The notes under the pieces: model-generated
What the model saw: the letters and a program-made list of their open reading frames with translations, nothing else
Told to the model about the DNA's origin: nothing
Database searches by the model: none
Virus record (IMG/VR): IMGVR_UViG_3300026532_000002
Location: 1 to 40,441 of that record
Source: a virus
Strand: one strand, 5' to 3'
Length of the DNA: 40,441 bases
Shown: piece after piece, positions 1,990 to 35,855 of the stretch
Position numbering within the stretch: the first letter of the stretch is position 1
Layout of the letters: each line of letters starts with the position of its first letter
Made by a program: the position numbers and the translations under genes

Positions 1990-3749
1990 CCCTGACACCT
2001 GCCGCTTTCATGTCCGCCGCACCGGCGCCGCTCAACGGCTCCTCGCCCTGGGCAGCGCGCTACGCGAGCGAGCTCCGCCGCGTAGTCACCGAGCACGCCG
2101 CCCGGACGCCGCGGACCCTTCAGCGCCACCTCGGCCCGTCCGAACTCGGCGTGGAATGCGATCGGCAGGTGGTAGGCAAAATGGCTGGCCAGCCGACCAC
2201 GAATCACATCGCGGACCCGTGGCCGAGCGTTGTAGGAACCGCAGTGCACGCCTGGTTGGCAGACGCGTTCACCGCGGACAACACCCGGCACGGTGTGCTG
2301 CGGTGGGTGGCGGAGCAGCGCGTCACCCCGCACCCGAATCACCCCGGTACCGCCGACCTGTACGACGCCGCCGAGCAGGCGGTGGTGGACCACAAGGTGC
2401 TCGGCGAATCGAGCCTGACCAAGGTCCAATCACTGCGGGGACCGCCGCGTAAATACGTGGTGCAGTTGTTACTCTACGGACTCGGTTACCGCAACCTCGG
2501 TTTACCCGTGCGGCGGGTCGCGCTGGCCGCGTACCCCCGCACTCAAGCTTCCCTTGACGGTCTTTACGTCTGGGATCGCGAATATTCCCCAGCGGACGAC
2601 GAATTACTACGGGAAGTGTTTCACCAAACTGATTATCGCCAGCAATGGGCCAATCGGGTCATTTCCGGTCAACTTGATATCAAACAGATCCCCCGGACAC
2701 CCAGCCACGATGAGTGCTATTTCTGTTTAGCGGGGGAAACCGAGGTTGTGACGCGCGACGGCATCCGACCGATCCGCGAACTGGCCGGCACAACACACAA
2801 CCTATTGGTTCCGTCAGCACGGCCAAACGGGGCACGTGGTCAGTTCGTCTCGGTCCCTGTACGCGTATTCGGTGTACAACGCCTATCCGCCGTTCACCTA
2901 CGGCGGTACCGGGCGACGAAGACGATCTACGCCACACCGGAACATCGGTGGATTACAGCCGACGGAGCGGTGGTGACTACGGCCGAATTGCAGACTGGTG
3001 TCCAACTCGCCTCGGTTCGGGCTGAACCCACTCGCGGGGCCCGTCCGATCAGCGCTGCCATCGCTCAGGGATTCACCTACGGCGACGGCGCACGGGGTAT
3101 CAATCGTCGGCCAGCCACACTTGCGATCTACAGACGTAGTCACAAGCGCGCGTTACTGCCTCACTTCGGCCCGATCGAGGTGCGGGAGTACGCCACACCA
3201 GACGGCGACACCGTAGACCATATCTACGGCCTGCCGCGTTTCTGGAAAGCACTACCGCCGCTCGACGAATCACGCTCGTTTCTGCTTAGTTGGCTAATCG
3301 GTTACTTTGCCGCTGATGGGTCCGTTACTGAAGCCGGACAATGTGAACTCAGTAGCGCCAACAGGGAATCGTTGCTGTTTGTGCGTGATCTCGCCGCAGC
3401 GTGTGGGATCGGTTACGGCAGTATCGCAACCAGATCGCGTTTCGGTAAAAACACTAAACCAACTGATCTGTACACAATTGGGCTGAACGCCCGCGATTTG
3501 CCTGATTGGTTCTGGATTCTGCCGCACCACAGACAACGCGTCGCTGAACGCGTAGAAAAAGCGGAAAGAATAACCCACTGGTCCGTCGTCGACATTAAAC
3601 CAACTAATCGAATTGAGGAGGTCTACTGCGCGACCGTCCCTGGTATAGGAGCGTTCGCACTCGTTGATGGACTCACCACCGGTAACTGCCCATTTTATCG
3701 GCCAGATGCGCACGACGGTGGACCGGGGTGCCCAGGAACAACCACATGA
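1986..3749 (+). CDS. Cas4/RecB-family PD-(D/E)XK exonuclease precursor, interrupted by an intein
   Basis: Nuclease motifs GTAVHAWL, ADLYD, VVDHK and QLLLYG (QxxxY). N-terminal Cys (VECDR) plus C-terminal ECYFC / CPFYR...GCPG cysteines. A 321-aa in-frame insert carries intein blocks. Confidence 0.8.
   Translation: MTLTPAAFMSAAPAPLNGSSPWAARYASELRRVVTEHAARTPRTLQRHLGPSELGVECDRQVVGKMAGQPTTNHIADPWPSVVGTAVHAWLADAFTADNTRHGVLRWVAEQRVTPHPNHPGTADLYDAAEQAVVDHKVLGESSLTKVQSLRGPPRKYVVQLLLYGLGYRNLGLPVRRVALAAYPRTQASLDGLYVWDREYSPADDELLREVFHQTDYRQQWANRVISGQLDIKQIPRTPSHDECYFCLAGETEVVTRDGIRPIRELAGTTHNLLVPSARPNGARGQFVSVPVRVFGVQRLSAVHLRRYRATKTIYATPEHRWITADGAVVTTAELQTGVQLASVRAEPTRGARPISAAIAQGFTYGDGARGINRRPATLAIYRRSHKRALLPHFGPIEVREYATPDGDTVDHIYGLPRFWKALPPLDESRSFLLSWLIGYFAADGSVTEAGQCELSSANRESLLFVRDLAAACGIGYGSIATRSRFGKNTKPTDLYTIGLNARDLPDWFWILPHHRQRVAERVEKAERITHWSVVDIKPTNRIEEVYCATVPGIGAFALVDGLTTGNCPFYRPDAHDGGPGCPGTTT
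2724..3686 (+). mobile_element. Intein (321 aa) with a double-motif LAGLIDADG homing-endonuclease domain
   Basis: Begins CLAGETEVVTRDG (block A) and has TPEHRW (block B). Two LAGLIDADG-like motifs: IAQGFTYGDGA and LIGYFAADGSV. Ends VYCATV...LVDGLTTGN followed by +1 Cys (CPFY). G+C is visibly lower in the endonuclease part. Confidence 0.85.
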
Positions 3750-3764
3750 AAGTGACTATTCATC

Positions 3765-4583
3765 GTGACATATCCACAGATGCCTCAAGCGCCACAGAGT
3801 TACCAGCAATTTCCTCAGGGTTATCCGACTACACCACCTCAGAATTACCCGCAGCAATTCCCTCAGCAATTCCCTCAGGATTACACACAGGCGCCCGCGC
3901 AGCCGCTACCTCAAGGAAACCTGTCGGACTTTTTCGGCCAGCCTTCAGTCAGTGGCGGTCCCTCGTGGTCCTTCAAAGACAAGCCGGTTGGACAGTCTTA
4001 CGCGGGAATCGTTGAGCGTGCGCTCACCAACGCTGACATTGAACCGCAGACTATCCCCGGCACCAACCGGCCAGCGACGTACCGCGACGGCCGCCAGAAG
4101 TGGGTGATGAAGGTCCCCATGTTGGTGCAAGCTGATACTGATCACCCCGACGGTAAAGCCACCTGGTATGTCAGCGGGCAATCTCGGGACGAGCTCGTGC
4201 GTGCAATGGCCGAAGCTGGCGCACCCGAAGGGGCTCCGGAGCCCGGCGCGTTTATTGGCGTCCAGCTAGTTGGGCGCAAGCCCAGCAAAACGCCGGGGTT
4301 CAGCCCCAGCAATCAGGTTCGTGTCGTCTACCGACGGCCGGAGGGTGCCGCAGCACCCACAGCTACGCCCGTCGCTGAGCAACCTGCACAGCCTGCCCCG
4401 CCGGCGCAGCAACCGTCGGCGTTCACCGAATTAGCCCAACAGCAAAGCATCGTCCCCGCACAGGTGTCACCGGAACCCGCGCAGCACCCTCCGGCCGCTC
4501 CGGCGCCTCAACCGCCAGCCGGGCTCTCCGCTGAGCAGCAGGCCCTGTTGGCCCGAATGACCGGGACGGCCCCCACGAGCTGA
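3765..4583 (+). CDS. Hypothetical protein with a Pro/Gln-rich N-terminus and Pro/Ala-rich C-terminus; possible DNA-binding role from its position
   Basis: 272-aa ORF with GTG 3765 or ATG 3780. Repeats QQFPQGYP, QQFPQQFPQDY. Sits between the exonuclease and helicase genes. No catalytic motif recognised. Confidence 0.5.
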   Translation: MTYPQMPQAPQSYQQFPQGYPTTPPQNYPQQFPQQFPQDYTQAPAQPLPQGNLSDFFGQPSVSGGPSWSFKDKPVGQSYAGIVERALTNADIEPQTIPGTNRPATYRDGRQKWVMKVPMLVQADTDHPDGKATWYVSGQSRDELVRAMAEAGAPEGAPEPGAFIGVQLVGRKPSKTPGFSPSNQVRVVYRRPEGAAAPTATPVAEQPAQPAPPAQQPSAFTELAQQQSIVPAQVSPEPAQHPPAAPAPQPPAGLSAEQQALLARMTGTAPTS

Positions 4584-4588
4584 ATCCT

Positions 4589-4627
4589 GCCCGCGGACCC
4601 GTCCGGCACATGGACGGGTCCGCGGGC
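4589..4627 (+). terminator. 16-bp perfect stem-loop between 3765..4583 and the helicase gene (terminator or attenuator candidate)
   Basis: gcccgcggacccgtcc / 7-nt loop / ggacgggtccgcgggc, followed only by tt. Confidence 0.35.
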
Positions 4628-4647
4628 TTACCGGAAGGGGCCCGCCG

Positions 4648-6414
4648 GTGGAGCCCACCATCGTTGGCGAACTGACCGCGGACGGCAGCCACATCGTGCT
4701 CATCGCTGCGGGTGACGATGCCGTGGCGATCGCGGGCGTGGCGCAACAGCTGCAATTCCTTACCCCGTTGGTCCAATCCAGCACCCCGCCCGGCGCGGTG
4801 GTGCTAGCGACAAGTTGGCCAGCGGTGGCACAACTAGCGCACACCTACGGCGCGGCGTGGCGCCCACAGCCACGGTTGCACGCCTGGATTAAGCGGGAGA
4901 CGCTGCGGCGCACACAGTTACCCGCGGAACTCACCGCGCCGGTTCCCGAGGGGCTCACCCCGCGGCCCTATCAGGTGCGGGGCGCGCTGATGATCGCCTC
5001 TGTCGGGTCAGCGCTCATTACGGACGAACCCGGTACCGGTAAATCGGTCACCACGATCCTCGGGCTCAAAGAGATCGGATTGTCCGGCCCCGTTGTCGTG
5101 GTCGCCCCGGCCAGCGTGGTGGACCCGTGGGTTGAGCACTTCCGTACATGGGCACCGGAATGGCGCGCGGTCGCCTGGCGGGGCGCGCCGCAGCGGCGGT
5201 GCGCGCTTGCCGGTACCGCGGATGTTTACGTGGTCAGTTACGACACCGCCCGTATGGACGCGCAGGCCGACAGGGGTCCTCACGGTGGGCGGCGCGCGCT
5301 GCTCGACTTGTGCCCGGCCGCGGTGGTCGTGGACGAACACCATTTGATCAAGAGCCCCCACGCGGCCCGTTCCCACGCCGTGCGCCGATTGGCCAAGCAC
5401 GCCGGCACCGTCATTGCGCTCTCTGGGACGCCGATCACCCATCACCCGGCCGACCTGTGGTCCACCCTCGTCGCGCTGAATCACGACGCGTGGCCGTCCC
5501 GGGAGCGGTGGGTGCGGCGGTATTGCCTGACGGCGCTGAGTGACTACGGCGAACAGATCCTGGGGCTGAACCCTCACTACGAACCCGAGTTTCGTACCGC
5601 GCTGCTCGGCCAGCATCGCCGCGTCGCCAAGGCGGATGTGCTTGATCAGTTGCCGCCCAAGGTCTACAGCGTTCGAACGGTCGAAATGCCGGCGGCGTAT
5701 CGCAAGGCGTACGACCAGATGGAAACCGACATGCTCGCCGAACTGCCGGACGGCACCGAGCTATCGGTGATGTCGGTGTTAGCGCAACTGACCCGACTCT
5801 CACAACTGGCCTCGGCAGCGGCCGACGTTGAGGTGACGCACGAGCTCGGGGCGGACGGTGAGGAGCGGACGCACTACCACGTGACCCTCAAGGCGCCCAG
5901 CTGGAAAGTTGGCGCGCTGCTGGAGGTGCTCGACGAGCGGCCCGGTGAACCGGTGGTGGCGTTCGCGCCGTCCCGTCAGCTCATGCGACTGGCGGGCGCG
6001 CTCGCGGAAAAGGCCGGCTACCACGTCGGCTACATCGTCGGCGGGCAAACGATGGCCGAACGCACCGCCACGATCGCGGCATTCCAGGCAGGCAAACTAG
6101 ACCTGATCTGCGCGACCACGGGTGCTGGCGGGGTGGGAATCACGCTCACCGCGGCGCGCACGGTGGTGTTCCTCCAGCGTCCGTGGTCGTTGGTCGAGGC
6201 GCTCCAGGCTGAAGATCGACTTCATCGAATCGGCGCGGAAAAGCACGATTCGATCGAAGTGATCGACATTGTTGCCGCTAACACCATCGACACCAGAGTG
6301 CGGGCCGTACTCCGCGAAAAGGCCGGGCAACTGGCCGACCTCGTCCAAGACAAACGGATCGTTGCCGAGCTGCTCGGCGGAGCGTCGGTCAAGAAGCTAA
6401 GGAAGGCGTCATAA
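4648..6414 (+). CDS. SNF2/Rad54-family (SF2) helicase
   Basis: Motif I DEPGTGKS, motif II VVDEHH, motif III LSGTP, motif VI QAEDRLHRIG. RBS ggaagggg 7 nt before GTG 4648. Confidence 0.85.
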   Translation: MEPTIVGELTADGSHIVLIAAGDDAVAIAGVAQQLQFLTPLVQSSTPPGAVVLATSWPAVAQLAHTYGAAWRPQPRLHAWIKRETLRRTQLPAELTAPVPEGLTPRPYQVRGALMIASVGSALITDEPGTGKSVTTILGLKEIGLSGPVVVVAPASVVDPWVEHFRTWAPEWRAVAWRGAPQRRCALAGTADVYVVSYDTARMDAQADRGPHGGRRALLDLCPAAVVVDEHHLIKSPHAARSHAVRRLAKHAGTVIALSGTPITHHPADLWSTLVALNHDAWPSRERWVRRYCLTALSDYGEQILGLNPHYEPEFRTALLGQHRRVAKADVLDQLPPKVYSVRTVEMPAAYRKAYDQMETDMLAELPDGTELSVMSVLAQLTRLSQLASAAADVEVTHELGADGEERTHYHVTLKAPSWKVGALLEVLDERPGEPVVAFAPSRQLMRLAGALAEKAGYHVGYIVGGQTMAERTATIAAFQAGKLDLICATTGAGGVGITLTAARTVVFLQRPWSLVEALQAEDRLHRIGAEKHDSIEVIDIVAANTIDTRVRAVLREKAGQLADLVQDKRIVAELLGGASVKKLRKAS

Positions 6415-6896
6415 TGAGTAAATGCCACACGCTCGTTATCGGTGTTGATCCCGGGGGCACGACCGGAATAGGCGTCTTAAACTATATCCACCGGTGTGAC
6501 ACTCCAGAGATAGTGGACATAGCCCAGTGTAGCCCGGGAATTACTTTGCAATTAGTGGCCGCTCTGATGGCGTGGAACGTACCCACCGTACTTGCGGTGG
6601 AATCGTTCGTTGTTGGACCGCGCGCATATCGCTCAGCCACACCACAAGCAGGGCAGACGGCACGAGAAATCATTCACGCGTTGTCTATGCAAGCGGAAGA
6701 ACTATCTTATGTGCGCTTTATTCAGCGCCCCGCTGGCACAGTCAAGCCCTGGGCGACAGATAAGCGCCTGGATGCCGCCGGACTGCTCGATCGCACCAAA
6801 GGCATGCCTCACGCCCGGGACGCCTTGCGCCATGCCTTGTTCGCCGCGGTGCGGGATTGCGGCGTAACCGACCCACTGAGCCGAGAGGCGTCATGA
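6414..6896 (+). CDS. RuvC-like Holliday-junction resolvase
   Basis: RNase-H-fold start VIGVDPGGTTGIGVL, later acidic VESF, C-terminal HARDAL. ATG 6414 overlaps the helicase stop. Confidence 0.7.
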   Translation: MSKCHTLVIGVDPGGTTGIGVLNYIHRCDTPEIVDIAQCSPGITLQLVAALMAWNVPTVLAVESFVVGPRAYRSATPQAGQTAREIIHALSMQAEELSYVRFIQRPAGTVKPWATDKRLDAAGLLDRTKGMPHARDALRHALFAAVRDCGVTDPLSREAS

Positions 6897-9800
6897 CCGC
6901 TGCCGAGGCCGGCATGGGCTCTCTGTCCGAGCACCACCGGCACATGCTATGTGTGGAATCGGGACTGTCCGCGCAAACAGTAACCCAACGCGGATACCGC
7001 ACCGTGCGGGGCACTGACGGCTCAGCCGAACTCGCCACGCTGGGTTTCAATCTTGCGCAGGCGCGCACGGCTGAGCGGGGTGACGCGTTGCTGGTGCCGC
7101 TGTACGACACCACCGGCGCCGTCGTCAGCCACCAAATCCGCCCGGACGTGCCCCGGCTATCTCAGGGCAACCCGATCAAGTACGAGACACCGGCGCACGT
7201 GGGCAATCGCGTGGACGTGCCGCCGGCGGGGCGTGACGTGGTCATGGACGGCACGTCCCCGCTGTGGGTGACGGAGGGGGCTAAGACCGCCGACGCACTC
7301 GCCCAGGCCGGCGCCGGCGTGCTCATGCTGTGCGGGGTCTGGGGGTTCATGGGCCGGAGTGCGCAAGGGATCGGGACGGCGGTGGTCGCCGATCTCGCCT
7401 ACGTGCCCATGGCCGGACGCACGGTGTACCTGGCCTATGACAGCGACGTTGTCACCAAAGAGAGCGTGCAGGCCGCTGAGCGGCGGTTGGCGGAGACTCT
7501 CAGCGGCCGCGGCGCCGCGGTGTTCACCGTACGGATCCCCAGCGGGTCAGGCGGTATCAAGCAGGGCGCCGATGACTTCCTAGCCGCTGGCGGCACGCTG
7601 GACGCGCTAGTGGCCACGGCCGCTGCGCCGACGGCGACCGACCCGCTCGGCGGCAAGTCACCCCAGCGCTACGCTTACGACCTTGTCGCGGACGGGCACG
7701 AGCTCGCGGTGGACACCACCGGCGCGTTCCTGTTGCGTCCTGTGGACGCGGCTGGATTGCCAGCCGGCCCGGCACGGCGGTACTCCCGCCTGGATCTACA
7801 GGACCGCACACTGAGCCTGGCCGGCGCACGGGGAGCGGTGACCCTGCCCCAATCCGCTGTGACGCACGCGGTATCCCGCCACAACGGTGACCACATTGAC
7901 CAGCGCGTGGGCTTGCCCCCATCGCACATCACCCGCGTACACGGTGTCACCTGGCTGGACATGGGCACTGGGGTCGGGCACGACGTGGTGCGCCTGAGCG
8001 CTGATGGTTGGGGGTACGCGTCGTGGTCCGACGTACCACTGTGGCTGGTGCGTGGTGACACCACGGTGGAACTCACGCCCCCGGCGTCTATTGAACAGCG
8101 CAGTTGGGAACCGCTACGCCGTTTGCTCGCGCTGGACGATGAGTCGTTCGCGGTGATCCGGGTCTGGCTGGTGGCGCTGCTGGTCACCGACCGCGTGCCG
8201 CTGTTGTGGTGGCGGGGTGCTGCTGGTGCTGGCAAGTCCACTCGGGCCGACCTCGTTAGCGCCGTATTGGGGTTGCCAGGATTGTCTGCCGCGCCGCTGA
8301 ACATGCAAGACGCTTACAGCAAACTACAGGAGTCTCCGTGGATGCAAATAGAGAACCTCGGAGCGCTGGACCCGGCGATGTCGGACCTGTGGTGCACAGC
8401 TATCGCAGACGGTGTGGTGTCCACCCGAATCCTGCACACCTCTCGCCAGGTTCGTGTCACTGGTAGGTGGACGGGTCAGGTCACGTCTGTCCGAGACGTT
8501 CCTGGTGCGCTGGACGACCTGATGTCCCGGGCGCTCACGGTGGACGTGCCGGTAGACACCACCCGCCGGCTGGCCGCGGACCTGCACGCGGAAATGCGCG
8601 AGCACGCTCCCCTCGTGCGCGGTGCGCTGCTTGACGACGCGGTGGCGGTACTACGGCGGTTCGCCGCTGGCGACCTGCGGACCGGTAGTTACCGGTTTCC
8701 CGCACTGACCGCGATCGCGCACGCGCTCGACGTGTGCGACGGGGTAGCGGGTATCCACGCCCATGCCCTAGGGGACGCGGCCAGCGAAACCACCGCGGAA
8801 CGCTCGGAAAACGACCCATGGGTTCGGTGGCTCGCCGATGAGACACGACGGTGCGGTGGCTGCTGGACCGCAACGGCAGCGGAGATCTTCGACGCCCAAC
8901 GTGCGCATCGGCGCTCGGTGACCGTTGCCCTTGCGGACGAGGTCGACCAGTGGCCGACCAGTGCCAAGCAGGTGGGCTGGTGGCTGCCGACGCGCGAAGG
9001 GCGTCTCCGTGCGTTGGGTGTCGAGTGGCGCAAGGGACGGCGTACGGCTGAGCGTCGTCCGCACGTGCTGCGTGTGCTCGGCGGAAACTCTGTCGTTCCT
9101 CCCAAGATCGAAGAAGAAACGACAGCCACTACGTCAGAACAAAACCCCAGGTCAACTAGGGTCTCTGACAACACTGACATTTCTGTCTTTAATCTTCAAA
9201 AAAGTTATAGAGATAAGAGTGAAGTGCAACCGTTAGATACACTAACGGTTGCACTTGGAGATAAGCAGGGGGGTATATACGGTGACGCCGATTTGGCGTC
9301 AGAAACGCCGGGAACGACAGAGACCCTAGTTGACCTGGGAGTTTGCGCTGACAAACCACAAACGGGCATTGTCATCCGCCCCGAGGGGAACGTCAGTGCC
9401 CATCGGTGCTCTCGCTTGGAGCGCCGGGGCGACCCCACCCCATGTTCTCTAAACGATACACGGGAAGGTCTTGTGGCTGTCGTGCGCGCCGAGGGTGCGC
9501 TCACGGTGGACGTGGAGACCACGGGCTACCCCGTCGGTCATGCCGACTATGCCCTGCGCACGGTACAGCTGGGGGGCGCTACGTGCGCGTGGGTGTTTGA
9601 CGTGCGTGACGGGGAGGGAGCCCACGAGGTGCGCGCGTTGGTGCGTGACTTCCTCGCGGTCGTCCCCAAGCTGCACGCTCACTCGGCTACCGCCGATCTC
9701 GTGCCGCTAGCGCACGCGGGGCTGATAGACCACGAGTCCGGCTGGCAACGGATGTTCGACACCGTCATCCCCGCCAAGCTTGCCGATCCGCAGAGCACGG

Positions 9801-16749: not shown

Positions 16750-17084
16750 GAGACCCGGAAAGGGCGCTTGTGATGTCCCTGTCCCGTGAAGAGGCCGCGC
16801 GCCGCCTCGGCATGAAGGTTGCCGAGGTGGTCAAAGTGGAAGAGGGTCCGGCCGGCACGTGGGCCACCACCCATGACGGCGTGCGCACCCTACTCGCTAC
16901 TGTCGAGCCGGCCGCCGAGCTCGAGCCGGCTGACGAGGTGCCGGACGGTGCTGTTGGCGAGGTGCTCACCTGGGTTGGCGACGACTCAGCGCGTGCACGT
17001 GCCGCGCTGAAGGTGGAACAGGCCAAGCCCAAGCCCCGGACCGGGCTGGTTTTTGACCTGCGGAAACTGGCAGGTTCGGCATGA
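16746..17084 (+). CDS. Hypothetical head-module protein
   Basis: GTGA overlap with the portal gene and ATGA overlap with the capsid fusion gene. Confidence 0.5.
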   Translation: MRDPERALVMSLSREEAARRLGMKVAEVVKVEEGPAGTWATTHDGVRTLLATVEPAAELEPADEVPDGAVGEVLTWVGDDSARARAALKVEQAKPKPRTGLVFDLRKLAGSA

Positions 17085-19486
17085 CGGCCCCAGCGGCTGT
17101 GGTGTGCCCGGCCTGCGGTCACCAGTTCATCCCGGATGCCGGGGCGACACGGGCCACCGAGGCTGTCGAGGCTGACAACCCGAAAAAGCCCTACGGCGAC
17201 GTCAACTATGCGGACCCGGGATACCAGAAGGACGGCAAGGCCCGGTATCCGCTGGACACTGAGCAGCACGTTCGGGCCGCGTGGTCCTATATCAACCAGT
17301 CCGACAATGCCGCCCAGTACACCTCGGACCAGCTCAAGAACATCAAGGGGCGGATCCGGGCGGCAGCCAAGCGGTTCGGCATCGCTATCGCTGATCAGGC
17401 CACCGAAGCGGGTACGGTGACCGATTCTGACCGGCTGGCCGGTCGGGTCATTGAAGCCAAAGGCACTGGTAGCGATGGTGGGCGGATCTTCCGGGTGCGG
17501 GTCATCGCTTACGGTGACAGTAAGAACGCCAGACGCTATCCCGAAGCGGTGATGCGCGCCGCGGCGCCGCTGTATGAGGGCGTCAAGGCATATGACCACC
17601 ACCGCGCCGAGGGCGAATTGCGGTCTTCCACGATCAGCGGCCTCGTGGGCTACTACCGCAATGCCGAGGCCACCGGCGACGGGATCGAGGCCGACTTGCA
17701 TCTGCTCCCATCGGCCACCCGTGCCGCCGAGGCACTAGATACGAGCCTGACTATTCAGGGCGAGGGCTTGTCTCCGCTGGTGGGGATCAGTCACGACGTG
17801 ATGGCGATGTACCGGCCGATCGTGGCTGGCGGGCAACGGCTGCAAGAGGCCACCGCCATCGTGAAAGTTAATTCCGCCGACATCGTTGCCGATCCGGCCG
17901 CTGGTGGTCAGGCCACCCGCATGGTTGCCGGTGGCACGGAGATTACTGAGACCGACCCGGCGAGTGTCCGGGACGAGAGCACAAAGGAGTCCGACGTGAC
18001 TATCACGACCGCGGACGTGCTCGCCGCGTTCAAGGATGCCGACGATGACGCGCTCGCCGCGGTCGGCCTGCGCAAGGTGAGTGAGTCCACCACAACGACT
18101 GAGCCGTCCGCCGCTTCCGCAGTGGACTCAGCGCCTGTTGGGGGTGAGCCGAGCACCGAGAGCACTGGGACAGCGAAGGCATCGTTTATGGGCAAGTTCA
18201 TGATCCGCCAGATGGTTGCCGACGCCGGGTTGCCCGAGTCCGCCGTTGAGGCGGTGACCGCGCTGCTGCCGGAACAGGTCACCGAGGCTGATCTGTCCAC
18301 GCAGATCGCCGCGCTGAAGACAAGCCTGGGCTTGGTCGAGCGCACCGGGTTGACCCCTACGAACACTGCGGCGGTCACCCGAGAGGCGGTGGATAAGAAA
18401 CGCGATGCGCTAGATGCGTTCTTTGCGGGTGACTACGTTAACGGTTACCGGTCGTTCCGGGAGGCGTTTGCCGACTTCACCGGCCGTCGGCCGAAGTCCT
18501 TTGACGAGGACTACAACCGCGTCATCCTGCGCGAGTCACTCGGCGAGTACGATTCGGGCGTTACCCGGTCCACGGAAAGTATGGACTCTACTACCTGGAA
18601 CCTTGTACTCGGGGACAGTATTACTCGGCGCATGGTGGCCGAGTACGTTCAACCGTCTTTGCAGACGTGGCGGCAGGTCGTGAGCTCTACCCCGCCGGTC
18701 AATGACTTCCGTATTCAGCGGATTGAGCGCGTCGGCGGTTACGGCGTGCTGCCCGCAGTTAACCAGGGGGCGCCGTATCAGCCGCTCACGTCACCGACCA
18801 ACGAGGAAGTCACCTACACGGTCACCAAACGCGGTGGGACGGAAGACATCACACTGGAGATGATCGCCAACGATGACATCCGGGCTATCCAGCGCATTCC
18901 CGGCAAGCTCGGTCTAGCCGCGGCGCAGACTCTCTACCGGTTCGTCTGGGACATCCTGCCCACCAACGCAGCCACGTCTTACGACGCAACCGCGCTGTTC
19001 GCAGTTGGCCACGCCAACACGGACAACCCGGCCGTGCTCGGCCAGTCGACGCTGTCGGTTGGGCGGCGCAAGATGCGCAAGCAGACAGCCTACGGCGATT
19101 CAAGCGACGTGCTGTCGTTTACACCGCGCGTTCTCGTGGTGCCCCCCGACCTGGAGGAAATCGCGTTTCAGCTGGCGACATCGGCTGTGGCGATTCCGTC
19201 CACGCCGGCCGGTCCGACCGATACGCCGAACATCCACCAAGGTCTTCAGGTCATCGTCGTGGACTACTACTCGGATACGAATGATTGGTATCTGGTGTGT
19301 GACCCGGCGATGTGCCCAACGATCGAGGTCGGTTTCTATCAGGGCCGCCAAGATCCGGAACTGTTCACCCAATCTGACCCGAGCGTGGGTAGCGTGTTCA
19401 ACGCCGATAAAGTTACATATAAGATTCGGCATATTTACAGCGGAACCGTGTTGGATCACCGGGGTTTCTACCGTGGCTCCAACTGA
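17081..19486 (+). CDS. Scaffold/protease-like domain fused to an HK97-fold major capsid protein
   Basis: 801 aa. N-terminal CPACG ribbon and the YADPGYQKDGKARYPLDT..HVRAAWSYI motif. Acidic Ala/Thr-rich middle. C-terminal ~300 aa resemble a major capsid protein (NQGAPYQPLTS...TYTVTKRGG...LVVPPDLE...). No separate protease, scaffold or capsid ORF exists. Confidence 0.7.
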   Translation: MTAPAAVVCPACGHQFIPDAGATRATEAVEADNPKKPYGDVNYADPGYQKDGKARYPLDTEQHVRAAWSYINQSDNAAQYTSDQLKNIKGRIRAAAKRFGIAIADQATEAGTVTDSDRLAGRVIEAKGTGSDGGRIFRVRVIAYGDSKNARRYPEAVMRAAAPLYEGVKAYDHHRAEGELRSSTISGLVGYYRNAEATGDGIEADLHLLPSATRAAEALDTSLTIQGEGLSPLVGISHDVMAMYRPIVAGGQRLQEATAIVKVNSADIVADPAAGGQATRMVAGGTEITETDPASVRDESTKESDVTITTADVLAAFKDADDDALAAVGLRKVSESTTTTEPSAASAVDSAPVGGEPSTESTGTAKASFMGKFMIRQMVADAGLPESAVEAVTALLPEQVTEADLSTQIAALKTSLGLVERTGLTPTNTAAVTREAVDKKRDALDAFFAGDYVNGYRSFREAFADFTGRRPKSFDEDYNRVILRESLGEYDSGVTRSTESMDSTTWNLVLGDSITRRMVAEYVQPSLQTWRQVVSSTPPVNDFRIQRIERVGGYGVLPAVNQGAPYQPLTSPTNEEVTYTVTKRGGTEDITLEMIANDDIRAIQRIPGKLGLAAAQTLYRFVWDILPTNAATSYDATALFAVGHANTDNPAVLGQSTLSVGRRKMRKQTAYGDSSDVLSFTPRVLVVPPDLEEIAFQLATSAVAIPSTPAGPTDTPNIHQGLQVIVVDYYSDTNDWYLVCDPAMCPTIEVGFYQGRQDPELFTQSDPSVGSVFNADKVTYKIRHIYSGTVLDHRGFYRGSN

Positions 19487-30684: not shown

Positions 30685-30766
30685 ACACGCCCGGCGGTAC
30701 AGAAACGCTTCCGCACTTTCCGGTTATCTGGAAGGTGCGGAAGCGTTTCTGTACCGCCGGGCGTGT
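30685..30766. terminator. 32-bp perfect inverted repeat (extendable to about 37 bp with one G-U pair) between convergent operons; bidirectional terminator candidate
   Basis: 30685-30716 is the exact reverse complement of 30735-30766. Followed on + by tgggtttcttct. The stop of the minus-strand gene (30724-30726) sits in the loop. Confidence 0.6.
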
Positions 30767-31563
30767 TGGGTTTCTTCTCCGGTGTGGGCGAGTAGGTGAG
30801 CGAGTGCGGCGCCCATGCCGAGCACGGCCACCGGCACGCACGCCACCACGGTGGTGATCTGCCACGGCGCGGCGTGCATGCCGGCCGCGACCATGAGGTG
30901 GTAGGCGACCTGCCCGAGCGCGCCCAAGCCCAGCGAACCCAGGGCGGAGACCCGGGCGTAGACCCGGGTCCGGGTGGACTCGACCCGGCCCGAGAGCCAC
31001 ACCCACAGGGCGTACGCGGCGTAGGTCTCCATACCGATCGGCAGCGTGATAGCCGTGTTGATCACGACGTTTCCCGCGATCCCGGGGAGCGGGTGGACCG
31101 GGCCGAACCCGGCAAGCTCACCGAGTCCGACCCACCCGGACCAGATGGCCACGAAGGCAGGTAACGCCAGCAACATCAGCGGCCAGCGGGGCACGTGACG
31201 GTGGGGGTTCGGACCCGGACTCGGACCCGGACTCAGACCCGGGTTATGGGATCCCGTAACCGGTGTGACCTGCGGTCCCGCCTTGGCCGGCACGGTCGGT
31301 TCCGGGGCGTGCAGGCCCACCTCTGAGCTCGGGTCTGAGTCCGGGTCCGGGGTGGGCTTGGGGGTGGGTCCGGAGATCAACGCCAGCGCGTCAGACGCCT
31401 TGTCCGCGCCGACCCGAAAGCGCTTCATGATCTTGTTCCGGGACGGCAGCGAACCCTCTTCTTCAGCCCAGGTCCGGACCCGGTCCGCCAGATCCGAGAC
31501 CGGGATCGGATGCGCGGACCCGGGTTCGAACCCGGGCTTGACGCCGTTGCTCGCCGGGTTCAC
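30724..31563 (-). CDS. Polytopic membrane protein with a soluble N-terminal domain and Pro-rich linker (DUF2637-like?)
   Basis: GTG 31563 overlaps the upstream stop (GTGA). Pro-rich linker (PTPKPTPDPDSDP, PGLSPGPSPGPNP), then 4-5 hydrophobic helices. Confidence 0.6.
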   Translation of the reverse strand: MNPASNGVKPGFEPGSAHPIPVSDLADRVRTWAEEEGSLPSRNKIMKRFRVGADKASDALALISGPTPKPTPDPDSDPSSEVGLHAPEPTVPAKAGPQVTPVTGSHNPGLSPGPSPGPNPHRHVPRWPLMLLALPAFVAIWSGWVGLGELAGFGPVHPLPGIAGNVVINTAITLPIGMETYAAYALWVWLSGRVESTRTRVYARVSALGSLGLGALGQVAYHLMVAAGMHAAPWQITTVVACVPVAVLGMGAALAHLLAHTGEETQHARRYRNASAPSR

Positions 31564-31823
31564 GGCCGGACCTCCGGCGACTCTGCGACACGGCTCGGAC
31601 GGATGGATAGGAATTTGCTTTGTAGCACGGTGCCGATCTCCATCACGTCGATCACACGCGCCGAACGCGGCACTCCGGAGTGCGTGTGCACGGTGATGGT
31701 GTCCCCGAGCGCTTTCTGTACCGCCGCCTCGGCAACACGGTACGCGTCTTGCTCGTCGACACCTTCCGCATGCACAAACACGGTCACAACGACCGGGTAG
31801 CGGTGGGATTCATGGCTCATCAC
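31560..31823 (-). CDS. Hypothetical small protein (87 aa)
   Basis: GTGA coupling to the downstream membrane-protein gene. Alpha/beta-like alternation in YPVVVTVFVHAEGVDEQDAYRVAEAAVQKAL. Confidence 0.5.
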   Translation of the reverse strand: MMSHESHRYPVVVTVFVHAEGVDEQDAYRVAEAAVQKALGDTITVHTHSGVPRSARVIDVMEIGTVLQSKFLSIRPSRVAESPEVRP

Positions 31824-31875
31824 GTTTCAGCTTCCGGTTCGATTTCCGGCGTAGGCGCGGGGGCGTTTCGTCATG

Positions 31876-32781
31876 TCAGTGGTGCTTGGCGACTACCGGC
31901 GCCGCAGCATCGATTATGGGCTGGACGTGTTCCCGGAGCACGCCCGCGAGATCCGTGTACTCCGGCTCATCCTCGGCACGGCCGATCACCGACGCCGCCA
32001 TGTGCACCTGCGCGACGTGACCTGCCCGGGTTTCCAGGATGTCGGCGAACACCTCGTGCACCTTGCTCGCCATCTCAGGGACCAAGAGACTGAAGCAATA
32101 CAGGCTCGCCGCGTCCATCCCGGCCGTCCCATGGCCCCAGAACTCCCAGTCCAGCAGCCCGAAGTTCGGGCTGATCAGGTTGGACCAGTGCAGGTCACCG
32201 TGAGCCGTCTCAAACTGGTCGACCCGCAGCGCGTCGGCGAACTGCTCGCCGTACACGCGGCGGACGTGCCAACCCTCCTTACCGCGCTGGTCGAACCGGG
32301 TCGTGGGCACCGTGCGCACCACGTCAAGGCTGCGGCGCAGCTCGGACCACCATGCGTCCGGAAGATCGAGCGGGGCACGGAGCACGTCGGTGGCCGAGCA
32401 TGGGCGACCAGACAGCAGAGTCATCACATCCGCGTGGACACGGACTTCCAGGTCAGGTTCGTTCCATTCGGTTGTTCTCAGCACGTACGGCTTGTTCACG
32501 CCCACGATGGCGTTGGCGTCGACGTTGCCGGTCCAGTAATCGTCCGGCAACCACCGATGCTGCTCGACTACCACGCGCAACCAACACGGTCCTTCAGGCC
32601 CCACCGTGGCGGCGCTGATGGAACGTAGGCGGTACCCGAACGTCGCCTGGCCAGTGAGTGTGAGTCCGAAGTGCGCAGCGGCCTGCATGAGGTTGCCGCG
32701 CATCCACCGACGAAACCGTTGCTGATCCTCATCGGTGGCGGTGCCTGCCACGATGTCCCCCAAAGCTGCCTTGAGTTCCAT
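31876..32781 (-). CDS. APH-fold (aminoglycoside-phosphotransferase-like) kinase
   Basis: Catalytic-loop signature HGDLHWSNL, then LLDWEFWGHG and MDAASLY. RBS gagg 5 nt before ATG 32781, 7 nt after the radical-SAM stop. Confidence 0.7.
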   Translation of the reverse strand: MELKAALGDIVAGTATDEDQQRFRRWMRGNLMQAAAHFGLTLTGQATFGYRLRSISAATVGPEGPCWLRVVVEQHRWLPDDYWTGNVDANAIVGVNKPYVLRTTEWNEPDLEVRVHADVMTLLSGRPCSATDVLRAPLDLPDAWWSELRRSLDVVRTVPTTRFDQRGKEGWHVRRVYGEQFADALRVDQFETAHGDLHWSNLISPNFGLLDWEFWGHGTAGMDAASLYCFSLLVPEMASKVHEVFADILETRAGHVAQVHMAASVIGRAEDEPEYTDLAGVLREHVQPIIDAAAPVVAKHH

Positions 32782-32788
32782 AGCGGCC

Positions 32789-33703
32789 TCACCTGTGGGG
32801 AGTGCAGTTGTACGGCCAGCATTCCCCGCCCTTAGGGATGCACGGATCGGCTACCTCGACGGGCCGCGCTCTGGTCAACCAGCGTGGCCAGCACCCGCCT
32901 TCAGGGATGCACGGATCGGATTCCCGGACGACCATGCCCTGTTTGACCAGTGTGGTGCGGGCGGCCGGCAGACTCGACATGATCTCCCGCAGTGGCTGGT
33001 TGCGTACGTCGCCGATCGGCATCCACTGGCTGAACACGCACGGCCACACCGCGCCATCCGGGGAGACCGCAGCGGCCCCGTCTGCGCACCGACCGCACAA
33101 CTGGGTGGCACCGGGCTGGGCGTCCCGGACTCCTCGGCCGATTTGCCGCAGACGGTCATAACCAACCTTCTCCACGCCGAGCGCCGTCAGTTCGTCGGTG
33201 GCCTGCTGGGCACGTTGCCCGTCGCCAAGATCAACCACCCCGGCCCGCAGCGGGATACCACGGCGCACCGCTTCGACAATGTTGGCCTTCGTGCGGGGAT
33301 AGCTGGGTCGACCGGTGATAGCGGCATGCTGCCCTGGGTCGTCGCTGTAATAGCTAGTGGCCAGCGACACGCCGGGTTGTGCGAATGTGTCCCACAGTTG
33401 TGGGGTGACGTGCACGAGGTTGGTAAACACTTCCACGCCCAGCGCGCGGAACAGGGCGTGGTTGATCAGTTCGGGCAGATCTGGGTGTAGGGTGGGTTCG
33501 CCGCCGATGAATTGCACGGTCTGCACGCCCAGGTCGGAGGCTTCATCAATGACCCGTTTCCAGTCGTCGGTAGTCATTGACCCGTGGCCGCCGGCCGGTG
33601 AGCTGTCCGCATAGCAATGTACGCAATTTAGAGTGCATTTGCCAGTGAGTTCCAGCCACAGAAATGTCAACGGGGTTGTTGTCATCAGGTCGGATTCTGA
33701 CAT
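32789..33703 (-). CDS. Radical SAM enzyme with a SPASM/twitch-type C-terminal domain
   Basis: LELTGKCTLNCVHCY (CX3CX2C), then CADGAAAVSPDGAVWPC (CX10GX4C), and a Cys-rich tail DPCIPEGGCWP...DPCIPKGGECWPYNC. RBS ggaaggga before ATG 33703. The ORF-track start at 33811 is probably too long. Confidence 0.8.
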   Translation of the reverse strand: MSESDLMTTTPLTFLWLELTGKCTLNCVHCYADSSPAGGHGSMTTDDWKRVIDEASDLGVQTVQFIGGEPTLHPDLPELINHALFRALGVEVFTNLVHVTPQLWDTFAQPGVSLATSYYSDDPGQHAAITGRPSYPRTKANIVEAVRRGIPLRAGVVDLGDGQRAQQATDELTALGVEKVGYDRLRQIGRGVRDAQPGATQLCGRCADGAAAVSPDGAVWPCVFSQWMPIGDVRNQPLREIMSSLPAARTTLVKQGMVVRESDPCIPEGGCWPRWLTRARPVEVADPCIPKGGECWPYNCTPHR

Positions 33704-33728
33704 GGGATATTCCCTTCCTGATCTTCCA

Positions 33729-33749
33729 GCCTGGTCCCGGTGACCAGGC
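33729..33749 (-). terminator. 8-bp stem-loop between the small ORFs and the radical-SAM gene (attenuator candidate)
   Basis: gcctggtc / ccggt / gaccaggc, in the 85-nt gap. Confidence 0.25.
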
Positions 33750-33788
33750 GGTCTGGATATACGGTAAAGATCAGTAGGCCAGGTCGTC

Positions 33789-33998
33789 TCAGTCTCCCGC
33801 CGGTAGTTCACCCTCGGCGGGCACCACGTTGTGGAGGCGGATCGCGTGGGCGAGCTGGTCGAGCACAGCGGCCAGGTCCTCTAGCTCCCCGGCCGGGAAT
33901 GTGCCCGCTGGGAGCCTGTGCGCCGCGTCGTCGGCTAGCCACTGCAGTTCACGCAGCAACACCGCCAGGATGCGCGCGTTGGGAACCCGCCTGGTCAT
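33789..33998 (-). CDS. Hypothetical 69-aa acidic helical protein
   Basis: ATG 33998 is preceded by gaaagg and overlaps the stop of ORF 33995..34243 (ATGA). The alternative 110-aa reading from GTG 34121 cannot be excluded. Confidence 0.45.
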   Translation of the reverse strand: MTRRVPNARILAVLLRELQWLADDAAHRLPAGTFPAGELEDLAAVLDQLAHAIRLHNVVPAEGELPAGD

Positions 33999-34243
33999 GG
34001 CGCGGCCTTTCGGGTTGTGCGCGCTTGGCGTTCTGGTCGTGGACTGGTCGTACAGGAGCGGCAGTGCGGCAGGCTCGCCCAGGGGTGATGCGGATAGCAG
34101 GTGATACAGCGCGCACCGCACACCGCGACGTAGGCGACACCAGCCTCATAGGCAACGGTGTCCGCACCAGATAGCACCAGGTGCGTGTACATCGGATCGC
34201 ATGCTGCGGGTAGCCACCCCGTGGTGGGCATTCCGGCGGTCAC
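33995..34243 (-). CDS. Hypothetical 82-aa Cys-rich small protein
   Basis: GTG 34243 overlaps the stop of the upstream gene (GTGA), and its TGA overlaps ATG 33998 (ATGA). Contains CGARCITCYPHHPWASLPHCRSC. Third-position G+C counted by hand is similar to the competing frame, so codon bias does not decide. Confidence 0.4.
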   Translation of the reverse strand: MTAGMPTTGWLPAACDPMYTHLVLSGADTVAYEAGVAYVAVCGARCITCYPHHPWASLPHCRSCTTSPRPERQARTTRKAAP

Positions 34244-34689
34244 CGCTGCCTTCCCAGCCTGACGTAGGGGCGCACCATCAGGCCGGTGGGGTCGGTGTAC
34301 TCCTCTGGCCTGGTGGATGGCGCGTGGTGACCGGCGGACGCGGGGCGCGCGGGTTCACCCGCGCCCACCGGGGTCTGGGACCGGCCGCCCCCGGTCGAGG
34401 GGGCAGGAGCGGCCGGAGACTGGGGTGCGCGCGGGAACAGCTCGGGATCGCCAGTGGCGAACTGGCCACCGGCCGACTTTTTGCGAGACCCCGCAAGCGG
34501 TGCCACCTGCACAAACTCGCGGGCAACGTCCATGCGTGCATTGCTCGCAGTCTGGTCGGCACGGTGACGCTCGCGCCTGGCGTCAAACAGCAGCCATACG
34601 AGGGCGCCGATCAGGACGACTAACGCGAGGAAGATCGGGATACCGGCGATGAGCACGGTGTCGACGCCTGCGCTGCGCTGATCAATCAC
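34240..34689 (-). CDS. Single-pass membrane protein with a disordered Pro/Ala/Gly-rich tail
   Basis: GGAGG 6 nt before GTG 34689. TM segment VLIAGIPIFLALVVLIGALVWLL. First gene of the leftward operon. Confidence 0.55.
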   Translation of the reverse strand: MIDQRSAGVDTVLIAGIPIFLALVVLIGALVWLLFDARRERHRADQTASNARMDVAREFVQVAPLAGSRKKSAGGQFATGDPELFPRAPQSPAAPAPSTGGGRSQTPVGAGEPARPASAGHHAPSTRPEEYTDPTGLMVRPYVRLGRQR

Positions 34690-34753
34690 GGGTCGCCTCC
34701 ATGGCATCGCTGCGGGGACCCTTTGCTAGCGTGGCGGTCGCCCCAATACGTCT

Positions 34754-34784
34754 GGTCGCCGACCAGAATCGACGGTCGCCGACC
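34754..34784. promoter_or_regulatory. Two copies of the 11-bp palindrome GGTCGCCGACC (operator candidates) in the divergent promoter region
   Basis: Copies at 34754-34764 and 34774-34784, 20 bp centre to centre. Half-copies GGTCGCC at 34691 and 34736. Confidence 0.45.
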
Positions 34785-34840: not shown

Positions 34841-35695
34841 ATGCCTGCGACCACTGGAACGCCGCGCGCTCGGGCGCTGGCTGCGGCTCTACGCCAAGCG
34901 CGCGCAGCTGCGGGCATTGGTGTGCGAGAGCTTGCGCGCAGGCTGGACATCACGCACTCAACGATCAGCTACTGGGAGACTGGTCGACGCGTCCCGCGTG
35001 TCGAAGACGTAGCCGGAGTGCTCGCAGCGATCCACGTATCCGGCGACGAGCGCGAACGCATTCTCGATCTCGCTCGGGGCGCCGGAGAATCCGACTGGCT
35101 CACCGTCGGCATGCCAGGTGTGTCACAGAAACTCGCGGGTGTCCTGGAATGTGAGCGTACTGCAATCCGGATCACAGAATGGCTACCGTGGAGTATCCCT
35201 GGCCTACTTCAAACCTCCGATTATGCGCGCGTGATCATTGGGCCAGATGAGGCAAAGCTCACTCTGCGGCTTGCGCGTCGAGACATCTTGACTCGCCGTG
35301 AACCGGTGGAGTTCCGCGCGTTGATCGGCGAACCGGCGTTACGGCAGGTCATTGGTGGTTGTGACATCATGGTGCACCAACTGCGAAGTCTTCTTGAGAC
35401 CCCCAGGAACGCCACTGTTCAAGTAGTGCAGATCGGCCGGGGTTGGCACCCGGGGCTCGCGGGTCCATTCATTCTTTATGAATTCGCCGAGGCGCCGGCG
35501 ATTGTGCACTTGGAGCCCTACCGATCAAGCGCATTTGTCTATAACGAACGCGACGTCGAGGACTACAAGAGAGCTGCAGATACCCTCCGCAAGGAAGTGG
35601 CGATGAGCCCGCAGGAGACGACGGGACTCATCGCCGATGTCATCAAGGAACTGGAGACGACGAGTGACCGTACCCGTACATCGCGTGCCCGATAA
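34841..35695 (+). CDS. XRE-family HTH regulator, WhiJ-like (HTH plus DUF5753-type C-domain)
   Basis: HTH segment GIGVRELARRLDITHSTISYWETGRR, with a long C-terminal domain. Followed by and overlapping a DUF397 gene, the typical actinomycete pairing. Confidence 0.75.
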   Translation: MPATTGTPRARALAAALRQARAAAGIGVRELARRLDITHSTISYWETGRRVPRVEDVAGVLAAIHVSGDERERILDLARGAGESDWLTVGMPGVSQKLAGVLECERTAIRITEWLPWSIPGLLQTSDYARVIIGPDEAKLTLRLARRDILTRREPVEFRALIGEPALRQVIGGCDIMVHQLRSLLETPRNATVQVVQIGRGWHPGLAGPFILYEFAEAPAIVHLEPYRSSAFVYNERDVEDYKRAADTLRKEVAMSPQETTGLIADVIKELETTSDRTRTSRAR

Positions 35696-35855
35696 CTGGC
35701 GCAAGTCTAGCTACAGCCAGCAGGAGACCGCATGCGTTGAGGTCGCCAACACCCTCGATTGGGTTCGCGATAGCAAAAACCCGGTTGGGCCGACACTGCG
35801 TGTAGACGTTCAGGCGTTTCTGGACGCAGTGAAGGCTGGCCAGTTCGACCGCTGA
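35664..35855 (+). CDS. DUF397 (BldB-family) small protein
   Basis: Signature WRKSSYSQQETACVEVA...VRDSKNPVGPTLRV...FLDAVKAGQFD. Confidence 0.8.
   Translation: MTVPVHRVPDNWRKSSYSQQETACVEVANTLDWVRDSKNPVGPTLRVDVQAFLDAVKAGQFDR

Follow-up and report, generated by a model that had tools for sequence, protein, structure and literature searches.

Several described systems resemble parts of the gene pair reported here. The SPASM/twitch peptide modifiers (SkfB, SuiB, EpeE/YydG, PqqE, and MftC) combine a radical S-adenosylmethionine (rSAM) core with a CX9-15GX4C hairpin, and the anaerobic sulfatase-maturating enzymes (anSMEs, of the AtsB/AslB type) are rSAM/SPASM enzymes that lack a RiPP (peptide made on ribosomes and then post-translationally modified) recognition element, RRE, and oxidize the Cys of a C-x-P-x-R motif in a folded protein. 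The APH-fold kinases, including APH(4)-Ia, FN3K, LxmK, and TvaC/TvaE, have a bilobal fold, an HxDxxxxN loop, and a metal-binding Asp. Pairs of rSAM and APH-like proteins occur in aminoglycoside pathways (BtrN, AprD4/AprU, and GenP), and some prokaryotic viperins (pVip) are paired with kinases, a pairing that PADLOC lists as a category. We analyzed the virus record IMGVR_UViG_3300026532_000002 over its whole length of 40,441 nt (the window), in which an rSAM enzyme and an APH-fold kinase are encoded next to each other in a minus-strand unit of 7 open reading frames (ORFs). We show that this phage pair is the ATPase-less form of a widespread actinobacterial module of rSAM, AAA_21 ATPase, and kinase, and that the module moves between chromosomes, plasmids, elements resembling integrative and conjugative elements (ICEs), and prophages. 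Full-text searches of the literature found no description of it.

The rSAM enzyme and the kinase compared with described systems

A first-pass annotation, made from the letters of the window, had proposed an rSAM enzyme with CX3CX2C and CX10GX4C signatures, and both the translation and Pfam confirmed this. The gene starts at ATG 33703, preceded by the ribosome-binding site GGAAGGGA, and its product also contains a GGE motif (FIGGEPT). Pfam Radical_SAM (PF04055) matched with an E value of 2.1e-17 (64.3 bits against a cut-off of 29.5) and SPASM (PF13186) with 2.8e-07 (31.1 against 21.5 bits), the latter restricted to positions 1-50 of the 67-position model. Of the SPASM motif, the first half, CX9-15GX4C, was found as C-ADGAAAVSPD-G-AVWP-C. 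The second half (CX2CX5CX3C and a final Cys, ligating 2 auxiliary clusters) is absent from the enzyme, which has C-x-P repeats instead. NCBIfam matches, including PqqE, MftC, AhbC, MoaA, StsB, and others, covered the generic N-terminal core only and lay far under their cut-offs. The AlphaFold model is confident in the core and gives residues 264-305 a predicted local distance difference test (pLDDT) score below 50; the best PDB matches of the model were SkfB, SuiB, EpeE, BlsE, PqqE, DesII, BtrN, and anSME.

By fold, the closest matches were the SPASM/twitch peptide modifiers (Foldseek E 1e-13 to 1e-10), with PqqE and MftC as the best partial NCBIfam matches. The window enzyme shares their core and hairpin and is similar in size to EpeE, which likewise has no RRE. 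Unlike this group, it has neither an RRE nor a neighboring precursor, and its CX2CX5CX3C segment is replaced by the C-x-P repeats. No RRE or PqqD-like domain was matched by Pfam at E <= 0.1 in any of the 7 ORFs, and there is no room for one in the rSAM enzyme, since the barrel of its AlphaFold model begins at about residue 14. The classical peptide-maturase reading of the first-pass annotation therefore did not hold, with no RRE, no conserved neighboring precursor, and no second SPASM half. The fold of anSMEcpe matched with a template-modeling (TM) score of 0.54-0.64, no better than other SPASM enzymes; no anSME family model was among the best 25 NCBIfam matches, and no sulfatase gene was present in the neighborhoods inspected. 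Some members of the rSAM family have been named 'AslB' by the Joint Genome Institute. In contrast to anSME, it is the window enzyme that carries the C-x-P motifs, without a conserved Arg at +4. The pVip systems likewise place an rSAM enzyme and a kinase at mobile or defense-like loci, and the PADLOC pVip models matched the rSAM core weakly, over the first ~115 residues only, with the NCBIfam viperin model NF038283 at 36.6 against 180 bits. However, viperins have no twitch/SPASM region, and their kinases are nucleotide kinases, not of the APH fold.

The kinase gene begins 7 nt after the rSAM gene, and its proposed identity, an APH-fold kinase with the HGDLHWSN...DWE motif, was borne out by the translation and by AlphaFold and Foldseek. 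Pfam APH (PF01636) stayed below threshold (17.6 against 23.2 bits), and many homologues pass it. The AlphaFold model (pLDDT 91.6) shows the bilobal fold, HxDxxxxN loop, and metal-binding Asp that define APH and eukaryotic-protein-kinase-like kinases. Foldseek aligned it to APH(4)-Ia, TvaE, FN3K, and other APH-fold proteins with TM scores of 0.55-0.6 at 10-17% identity (for APH(4)-Ia, probability 1.0 and TM 0.55-0.60). A search of a viral structure library returned generic protein kinases only. Unlike the known APH-fold kinases, from which it is set apart by this low identity, the window kinase belongs to a discrete family, has an N-terminal helical extension, and has no HopA1-type lyase partner; neither this lyase nor a cyclase/partner protein of class V lanthipeptide or thioamitide pathways was found among the window ORFs or at the related loci inspected. 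When 1.84 billion representatives were searched by profile, the family numbered only 931 clusters (at 50% identity), of which 305 reached E <= 1e-30; within the APH fold it forms a small and discrete clade. In rare cases, represented by P0431 and P0469, the kinase is fused to a GT2 glycosyltransferase (584 aa) or to TPR repeats (446 aa), and these could be Rosetta-stone fusions or gene-calling artifacts. With all catalytic motifs intact, the rSAM enzyme and the kinase both look active. No curated model naming either family was found in NCBIfam, Pfam, PADLOC, or PHROGs, and the earlier impression that the combination belongs to no named defense system or RiPP class agrees with the NCBIfam and PADLOC results.

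A linked module of rSAM, ATPase, and kinase genes

The conserved unit in the window consists of 2 genes, rSAM and then kinase. With the rSAM alignment as query, a search through one representative genome for each species identified at least 570 confirmed rSAM relatives. Linkage was counted at the best 80 of these loci by tblastn with the window proteins and an ATPase query (Pfam AAA_21), taken from Streptomyces malaysiensis, where its gene separates rSAM from kinase, with partners accepted within 3.5 kb; 58 of the 80 loci were well flanked, having at least 3 kb on both sides of rSAM. Both kinase and ATPase accompanied rSAM at 63 of the 80 loci (48 of the 58 well-flanked loci), the kinase only at 5 (4 well flanked), the ATPase only at 2 (2 well flanked), and neither partner at 10 (4 well flanked), placing the kinase at 52 of the 58 well-flanked loci. 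In the reciprocal test, rSAM was present at 22 of 26 evaluable well-flanked metagenome loci anchored on the kinase. The identity matrices of rSAM and kinase were correlated over 68 loci (Mantel r = 0.68, p = 0.001), a correlation to which shared organismal phylogeny contributes. Further, the 3 genes of the module occur in at least 6 orders or orientations, with the ATPase always directly before the kinase, and such varied order with a persisting gene set is the pattern to be expected of a functional unit, not of inherited synteny. The rSAM and kinase genes are thus not unlinked host metabolic genes but a real unit, linked and horizontally mobile, which contradicts the refuting condition set in the first-pass annotation. 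The first-pass annotation had proposed a cassette of all 7 ORFs; across about 190 related loci, only rSAM and kinase are conserved, and the usual third partner had been missed.

This third gene encodes a stand-alone ABC-type AAA_21 ATPase of about 250 aa and is absent from the phage. Its best PADLOC matches were AAA_21 defense ATPases (MADS3, AriA, GajA, PtuA, and OLD; mad3 at 2.6e-14), and its similarity to the nucleotide-binding domains of transporters was of comparable strength. Unlike the defense systems, it stands alone, without nuclease, Toprim, or other partner genes. The nearest relative of the window pair, at locus L002, has the 2-gene form in a chromosomal-looking setting, with 69% (rSAM) and 60% (kinase) identity, and ATPase-less chromosomal forms were also identified at L005, L014, and L022. 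At 2 loci, L089 (a viral contig) and L095, a family rSAM is followed directly by a divergent APH-like kinase unrelated to the window kinase. The latter locus is the Amycolatopsis japonica plasmid pAmyja1, where a cytochrome P450, the rSAM, and the divergent phosphotransferase adjoin an integrase (3693-9096). Elsewhere, at L193 (8182-9186), an APH_6_hur-type kinase and an MFS transporter flank the 3-gene module.

Distribution on mobile elements and neighboring genes

Homologues of rSAM and kinase were numerous in Pseudonocardiaceae and other actinomycetes, and the contigs that yielded them were often of equal length for the two proteins. The rSAM gene was identified on 28 plasmid records, mostly from Streptomyces, and among IMG/VR viral contigs 11 carried rSAM and 6 the kinase, 2 of the latter holding the 3-gene set. 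Resolvase, integrase, TrwB-like, and relaxase genes adjoin some rSAM copies. In the Mycobacterium abscessus prophages prophi68-1 and prophiGD04-1, rSAM occupies the same slot between lysis genes and integrase as in the window and is annotated as 'oxidoreductase'; these were the only GenBank phages sharing rSAM, and none carried the kinase. No close copy of the window rSAM or kinase was found in the viral scans of IMG/VR.

A second kind of partner, a PIMT-like O-methyltransferase of about 380 aa, was encoded directly after rSAM at 6 loci, including 4 viral contigs, and on a Streptomyces canus plasmid (L096, 5895-7025; L071, L079, L087, L090, L092, and L094). It was matched along its whole length by TIGR04188, 'ATP-grasp peptide maturase system methyltransferase' (7.5e-79, below the cut-off), and PIMT-like methyltransferases of this kind act on Asp in peptides. 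At L065 the methyltransferase lies directly upstream of an rSAM that also has ATPase and kinase, and at L043 and L068 all 4 genes lie within about 3.5 kb. By gene neighborhood, the methyltransferase is an alternative or additional partner of rSAM, mainly on viral contigs and plasmids. The motif D[GS]x0-2D was present in the tails of 5 of 7 methyltransferase-linked rSAMs against 1 of 79 others (Fisher 3.5e-6), a pattern noticed post hoc in related sequences, and this enrichment may hint at a link between tail and methyltransferase.

Divergent from the window unit lies a WhiJ-type XRE/DUF397 pair, already recognized in the first-pass annotation and confirmed by Pfam (DUF5753 4.4e-41, HTH_31 6.3e-15, and DUF397 1.1e-14) and by an NCBIfam match of the XRE protein to the Sco1979 family (1.5e-36, below the cut-off). 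It has the architecture of other WhiJ-type pairs, with an overlapping DUF397 gene and divergent orientation. What is new for such pairs is their recurrent position beside the rSAM module: an XRE(DUF5753) gene was found within a few kb of rSAM at 17 of 66 genome loci, at 8 of them upstream and divergent as in the window. The best matches of both the window XRE and DUF397 proteins (54% identity each) were at L040, directly upstream of rSAM, and the arrangement [DUF397-XRE] <-> [2-4 small ORFs - rSAM] recurs at several loci. At L002 an NsdA-family TPR-like regulator (4841-6142) is divergent beside rSAM in place of the XRE/DUF397 pair, and NsdA-family homologues were present within a few kb of rSAM at 7 further loci.

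The Cys-x-Pro tail of the rSAM enzyme

The first-pass annotation had overlooked a repetitive C-terminal tail in the rSAM enzyme, whose Cys-x-Pro units in the window lie within a duplicated DPCIPxGGxCWP unit. Across 207 family members, 1376 of 1407 Cys residues downstream of the twitch motif (98%) have Pro at +2. Proteins of the family carry 0 to 14 C-x-P units, the distribution peaking at 3-4 and 7-8. Three residues is the most frequent Cys-to-Cys spacing, and a terminal motif (CWPxN/CxPxY) is conserved family-wide. The rSAM of the M. abscessus prophages has no tail at all. Judged by the family alignment, the tail is a hallmark of the whole rSAM family, replacing the second SPASM half. We favor reading it as a derived cluster-binding segment over a tethered substrate or pseudo-substrate. 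In the 7-Cys version the spacing is kept across families, as in a metal or Fe-S site, and in the clade of the window enzyme the 3 twitch Cys and 4-5 tail Cys add up to the Cys count of a normal SPASM domain. No Ser/Thr enrichment was found in the tails of kinase-linked rSAMs relative to the others.

Phage genome, leftward unit, and the other ORFs

The window is a complete temperate siphophage genome of about 40.4 kb from a Pseudonocardiaceae-like host. At least 14 soil-metagenome contigs represent the same phage genome, 10 of them in the 20-50 kb class, and at least 4 are about 40.4 kb long with different end points; such permuted ends indicate a complete, circularly permuted genome. No near relative was found among GenBank phages. 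PHROGs identified exonuclease, helicase, DNA polymerase, terminase, portal, capsid-protease fusion, head-tail adaptor, tape measure, tail protein, and endolysin genes, all on the plus strand, and a holin and a tyrosine integrase are annotated on either side of the cassette region. The slot between lysis genes and integrase suggested by the first-pass annotation was thereby confirmed. The cassette lies on the strand opposite to the late genes and was 100% identical across 7 compared contigs from different samples (5.8 kb compared), which shows recent spread, not selection. Elsewhere in the genome, a 587-aa exonuclease-like gene (1986-3749) matched an exonuclease family over residues 19-249 only and had a weak LAGLIDADG_3 match in precomputed annotation, and may hold a homing-endonuclease or intein insertion. 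A capsid-protease fusion is suggested by the 801-aa ORF at 17081-19486, which matched families of head maturation proteases as well as of major head proteins.

Coordinates, gene callers, and translations agreed with the first-pass annotation on all 7 minus-strand ORFs, their overlaps, gaps, and motifs (Table 1), and independent gene callers on identical metagenome contigs gave products of 149, 82, 69, 304, 301, 86, and 279 aa. Four-nucleotide overlaps occur at 3 junctions (34240-34243, 33995-33998, and 31560-31563), and the remaining gaps are 85, 7, and 52 nt. G+C bias at the third codon position (GC3) supported coding in 6 of the 7 ORFs, the exception being the 82-aa ORF. To judge from its sequence and position, the 82-nt palindrome closing the unit on its 3' side probably acts as a terminator in both directions. 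Rfam matches to it were spurious and of microRNA type, reflecting the long hairpin, and Rfam gave no riboswitch or other RNA family. A stem-loop in the spacer before rSAM and an operator-like palindrome in the divergent region had been noted at first pass; both are present, but the stem-loop was no stronger than in shuffled sequence (z = -1.36).

Table 1. Features of the leftward unit and its flanks in the window
Feature	Position	Strand	Remarks
Holin gene	ends 30503		Bounds leftward unit on lysis side (annotation)
Leftward unit, 7 ORFs	between holin (end 30503) and XRE gene (start 34841)	-	
Imperfect palindrome, 82 nt	30685-30766		3' end of unit, between convergent lysis genes and cassette; probable terminator
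279-aa membrane protein	30724..31563	-	N-terminal soluble part, Pro-rich linker, hydrophobic C-terminal half (hydropathy)
87-aa ORF	31560..31823	-	Not conserved with the pair
APH-fold kinase, 301 aa	31876..32781	-	Obligate partner of rSAM
Catalytic HGDLHWSN...DWE	32143-32202	-	Kinase translation
rSAM enzyme, 304 aa	32789..33703	-	Core gene of conserved module (Pfam/NCBIfam, translation, AlphaFold, family alignment)
C-terminal Cys-x-Pro tail of rSAM, SDPCIPEGGCWPRWLTRARPVEVADPCIPKGGECWPYNCTPHR	32789..32920	-	5 CxP units, internal duplication (translation)
Twitch / first-half SPASM motif CX2CX10GX4C	33038-33097	-	rSAM translation
CX3CX2C (KCTLNCVHC)	33614-33637	-	rSAM translation
Nested hairpin	33718-33774	-	In 85-nt spacer just upstream of rSAM ribosome-binding site
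69-aa acidic helical ORF	33789..33998	-	Good coding signature; no Pfam match
82-aa Cys-rich ORF	33995..34243	-	Overlaps both neighbors by 4 nt; called by gene finders
149-aa protein, single transmembrane segment	34240..34689	-	First gene of leftward unit; specific to phage (hydropathy)
Palindrome TCTGGTCG-c-CGACCAGA	34751-34767		Divergent intergenic region; candidate operator
WhiJ-type XRE regulator (HTH_31 + DUF5753, Sco1979-like)	34841..35695	+	Divergent from cassette
DUF397 protein, XRE partner	35664..35855	+	Pfam, gene calls

By their absence or scarcity at related loci, the other 5 ORFs are phage or mobile-element passengers and not partners of rSAM and kinase. No homologues of the 149-aa, 82-aa, 87-aa, or 279-aa products were found by tblastn at about 190 related loci, and the 69-aa ORF had 2 weak matches (L015 and L035), one of which adjoins rSAM. 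ORF clustering across about 90 loci gave no conserved small-ORF family upstream of rSAM, and the small ORFs of loci with the same layout, compared with each other, showed nothing homologous between loci. The 69-aa ORF has GC1/2/3 values of 0.81/0.46/0.81. The 82-aa ORF, with 0.63/0.67/0.67, lacks the GC3 bias seen in all other genes of the region; that it is a coding sequence is doubtful, and it may not be translated. The compared contigs show no variation in it.

The 279-aa membrane protein gave no match to Pfam DUF2637 at E <= 0.1, and its homologues have no precomputed Pfam domain. It belongs to a large actinobacterial family (3683 homologues), members of which in Kribbella and other genera lie in elements like actinomycete ICEs and are closely followed by a ~735-aa gene, Prim-Pol, DUF3631, Xis, and Int (L195 and L197). 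The NCBI label 'ABC transporter permease' is frequent in this family and looks wrong; a membrane protein for transfer or exclusion is the more probable identity. These neighborhoods point to a mobile-element protein unrelated to the rSAM pair.

Possible functions of the module

As the best explanation, we tentatively propose a mobile, protein- or peptide-modifying module with a role in conflict or fitness. The rSAM enzyme and the kinase would share one substrate, combining ATP-dependent phosphorylation with 5'-deoxyadenosyl-radical chemistry. The substrate would be a protein or peptide without a dedicated precursor gene beside the pair, with a host protein, a protein of an invading phage, or the enzyme's own tail as candidates. 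The slot, strand, and divergent regulator suggest that the cassette would be expressed in the lysogen, probably under control of the XRE/DUF397 pair, and the phenotype would be one of exclusion, defense, or stress tolerance, not a secreted RiPP. A proteinaceous substrate is suggested by the structural neighbors of rSAM, with the peptide modifiers SkfB, SuiB, EpeE, and PqqE as top matches, and by the peptide-type methyltransferase partner. Among the top kinase matches were TvaE and FN3K, whose ligands or substrates are peptides and proteins.

Several observations weigh against this explanation. The small-molecule enzymes BlsE, DesII, and BtrN were also good structural matches of rSAM, and the best match of the kinase was the hygromycin kinase APH(4)-Ia. 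PADLOC returned nothing system-specific, with no matches for the kinase and small ORFs, generic matches for rSAM, and a generic helix-turn-helix match for XRE. The neighbors of chromosomal copies are mostly ordinary genes, not defense islands. No sigma-70-like promoter was found for the cassette. The loci share ancestry, which inflates the linkage statistics, and the ATPase is missing from the phage although most copies have it, so this version may work differently or only in part.

The main rival is small-molecule tailoring, in which the kinase would phosphorylate a hydroxyl of a sugar, aminocyclitol, or nucleoside and rSAM would oxidize or dehydrate the product, with phosphate as leaving group. 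The outcome would be antibiotic inactivation, a lysogenic conversion to resistance, or an antiviral nucleotide analogue such as viperin makes. We consider this somewhat unlikely. The kinase fold is closest to the aminoglycoside kinases APH(4)-Ia, APH(9), APH(3'), and APH(2''), yet the kinase shares no more than 10-14% identity with any APH and falls under the Pfam APH threshold. Similarly, rSAM matches BlsE, DesII, and BtrN by fold and profile, its twitch region aligning to BtrN, but peptide-modifying rSAMs outrank these enzymes in the structural matches, and the recurrent PIMT-like partner belongs to peptide-modifying clades. The missing RRE and precursor would fit a small molecule, as would the kinase homologue fused to a GT2 glycosyltransferase and the locus where an APH_6_hur kinase and an MFS transporter stand beside the module; against this, no biosynthetic and no consistent transporter genes lie nearby, and the viperin model scored far below its cut-off.

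The repeats in the rSAM tail recall the motif of the sulfatase maturases, and rSAM could instead modify its own (Cys-x-Pro-x)n tail in cis, forming formylglycine as anSME does or a thioether, with kinase or methyltransferase tailoring the product. We regard this as distinctly unlikely, and likewise improbable is its extension to a self-contained mobile 'enzyme plus built-in core peptide', with interchangeable kinase, with or without ATPase, or methyltransferase, serving phages and plasmids as an exclusion or defense effector. The near-invariant C-x-P pattern, the dominant spacing of 3, the unfixed unit number, and the predicted disorder are as a substrate might show, and the tail-less M. abscessus prophage enzyme indicates that the fold does not need the tail. 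A PIMT-type site, D[GS]x0-2D, is also enriched in methyltransferase-linked tails, but this pattern was found post hoc in mutually related sequences. The kept spacing of the 7-Cys version and the SPASM-like Cys count in the window's clade speak instead for a metal or Fe-S site, tail composition is the same in kinase-linked and other rSAMs, and there is no conserved protease to free a product. The leading idea of the first-pass annotation, a classical RiPP cassette in which the 82-aa or 69-aa ORF is the precursor, which rSAM and kinase would mature and the membrane proteins would export or anchor, now ranks as the least likely of the readings considered. It could draw on the position of the small ORFs directly upstream in the same unit, on the structural closeness of rSAM to RiPP maturases, and on the APH-like kinases of class V lanthipeptide and thioamitide pathways, with TvaE as a top match. 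However, neither rSAM, whose core starts at residue ~14, nor any other ORF has an RRE/PqqD-like domain; the small ORFs are not conserved elsewhere, and no conserved small ORF accompanies the rSAM family; the 82-aa ORF has no coding signature; lyase, cyclase, protease, and transporter are missing; and the membrane protein belongs to a conjugative-element family. It is also very unlikely that the pair is incidental cargo, a truncated remnant of a host 3-gene module without function for the phage. The ATPase found at 63 of 80 genome loci is missing here, and few phages carry rSAM or kinase, but both ORFs are intact with all catalytic motifs, chromosomes hold the same 2-gene form, and a strong hairpin closes the densely packed genes. 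Phage DNA hypermodification, with rSAM and kinase acting on 5-hydroxymethyldeoxyuridine, was considered and rejected, given the mainly chromosomal distribution of the module, the slot on the lysogeny side, and the absence of the other pathway genes.

Implications

The component folds are well known, and uncharacterized rSAM neighborhoods are common. The interest of this locus rests on the breadth and mobility of the module, the unusual tail, and the minimal phage copy. With at least 570 rSAM relatives in species-representative genomes, it is a mobile actinobacterial module without an entry in curated families or defense catalogues, and the phage carries a 2-gene version convenient for experiments. 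If the tail were the substrate, it would be a new way to encode a modified peptide, and should the module prove to act in conflict, actinobacterial immunity would gain a radical-SAM/kinase mechanism.

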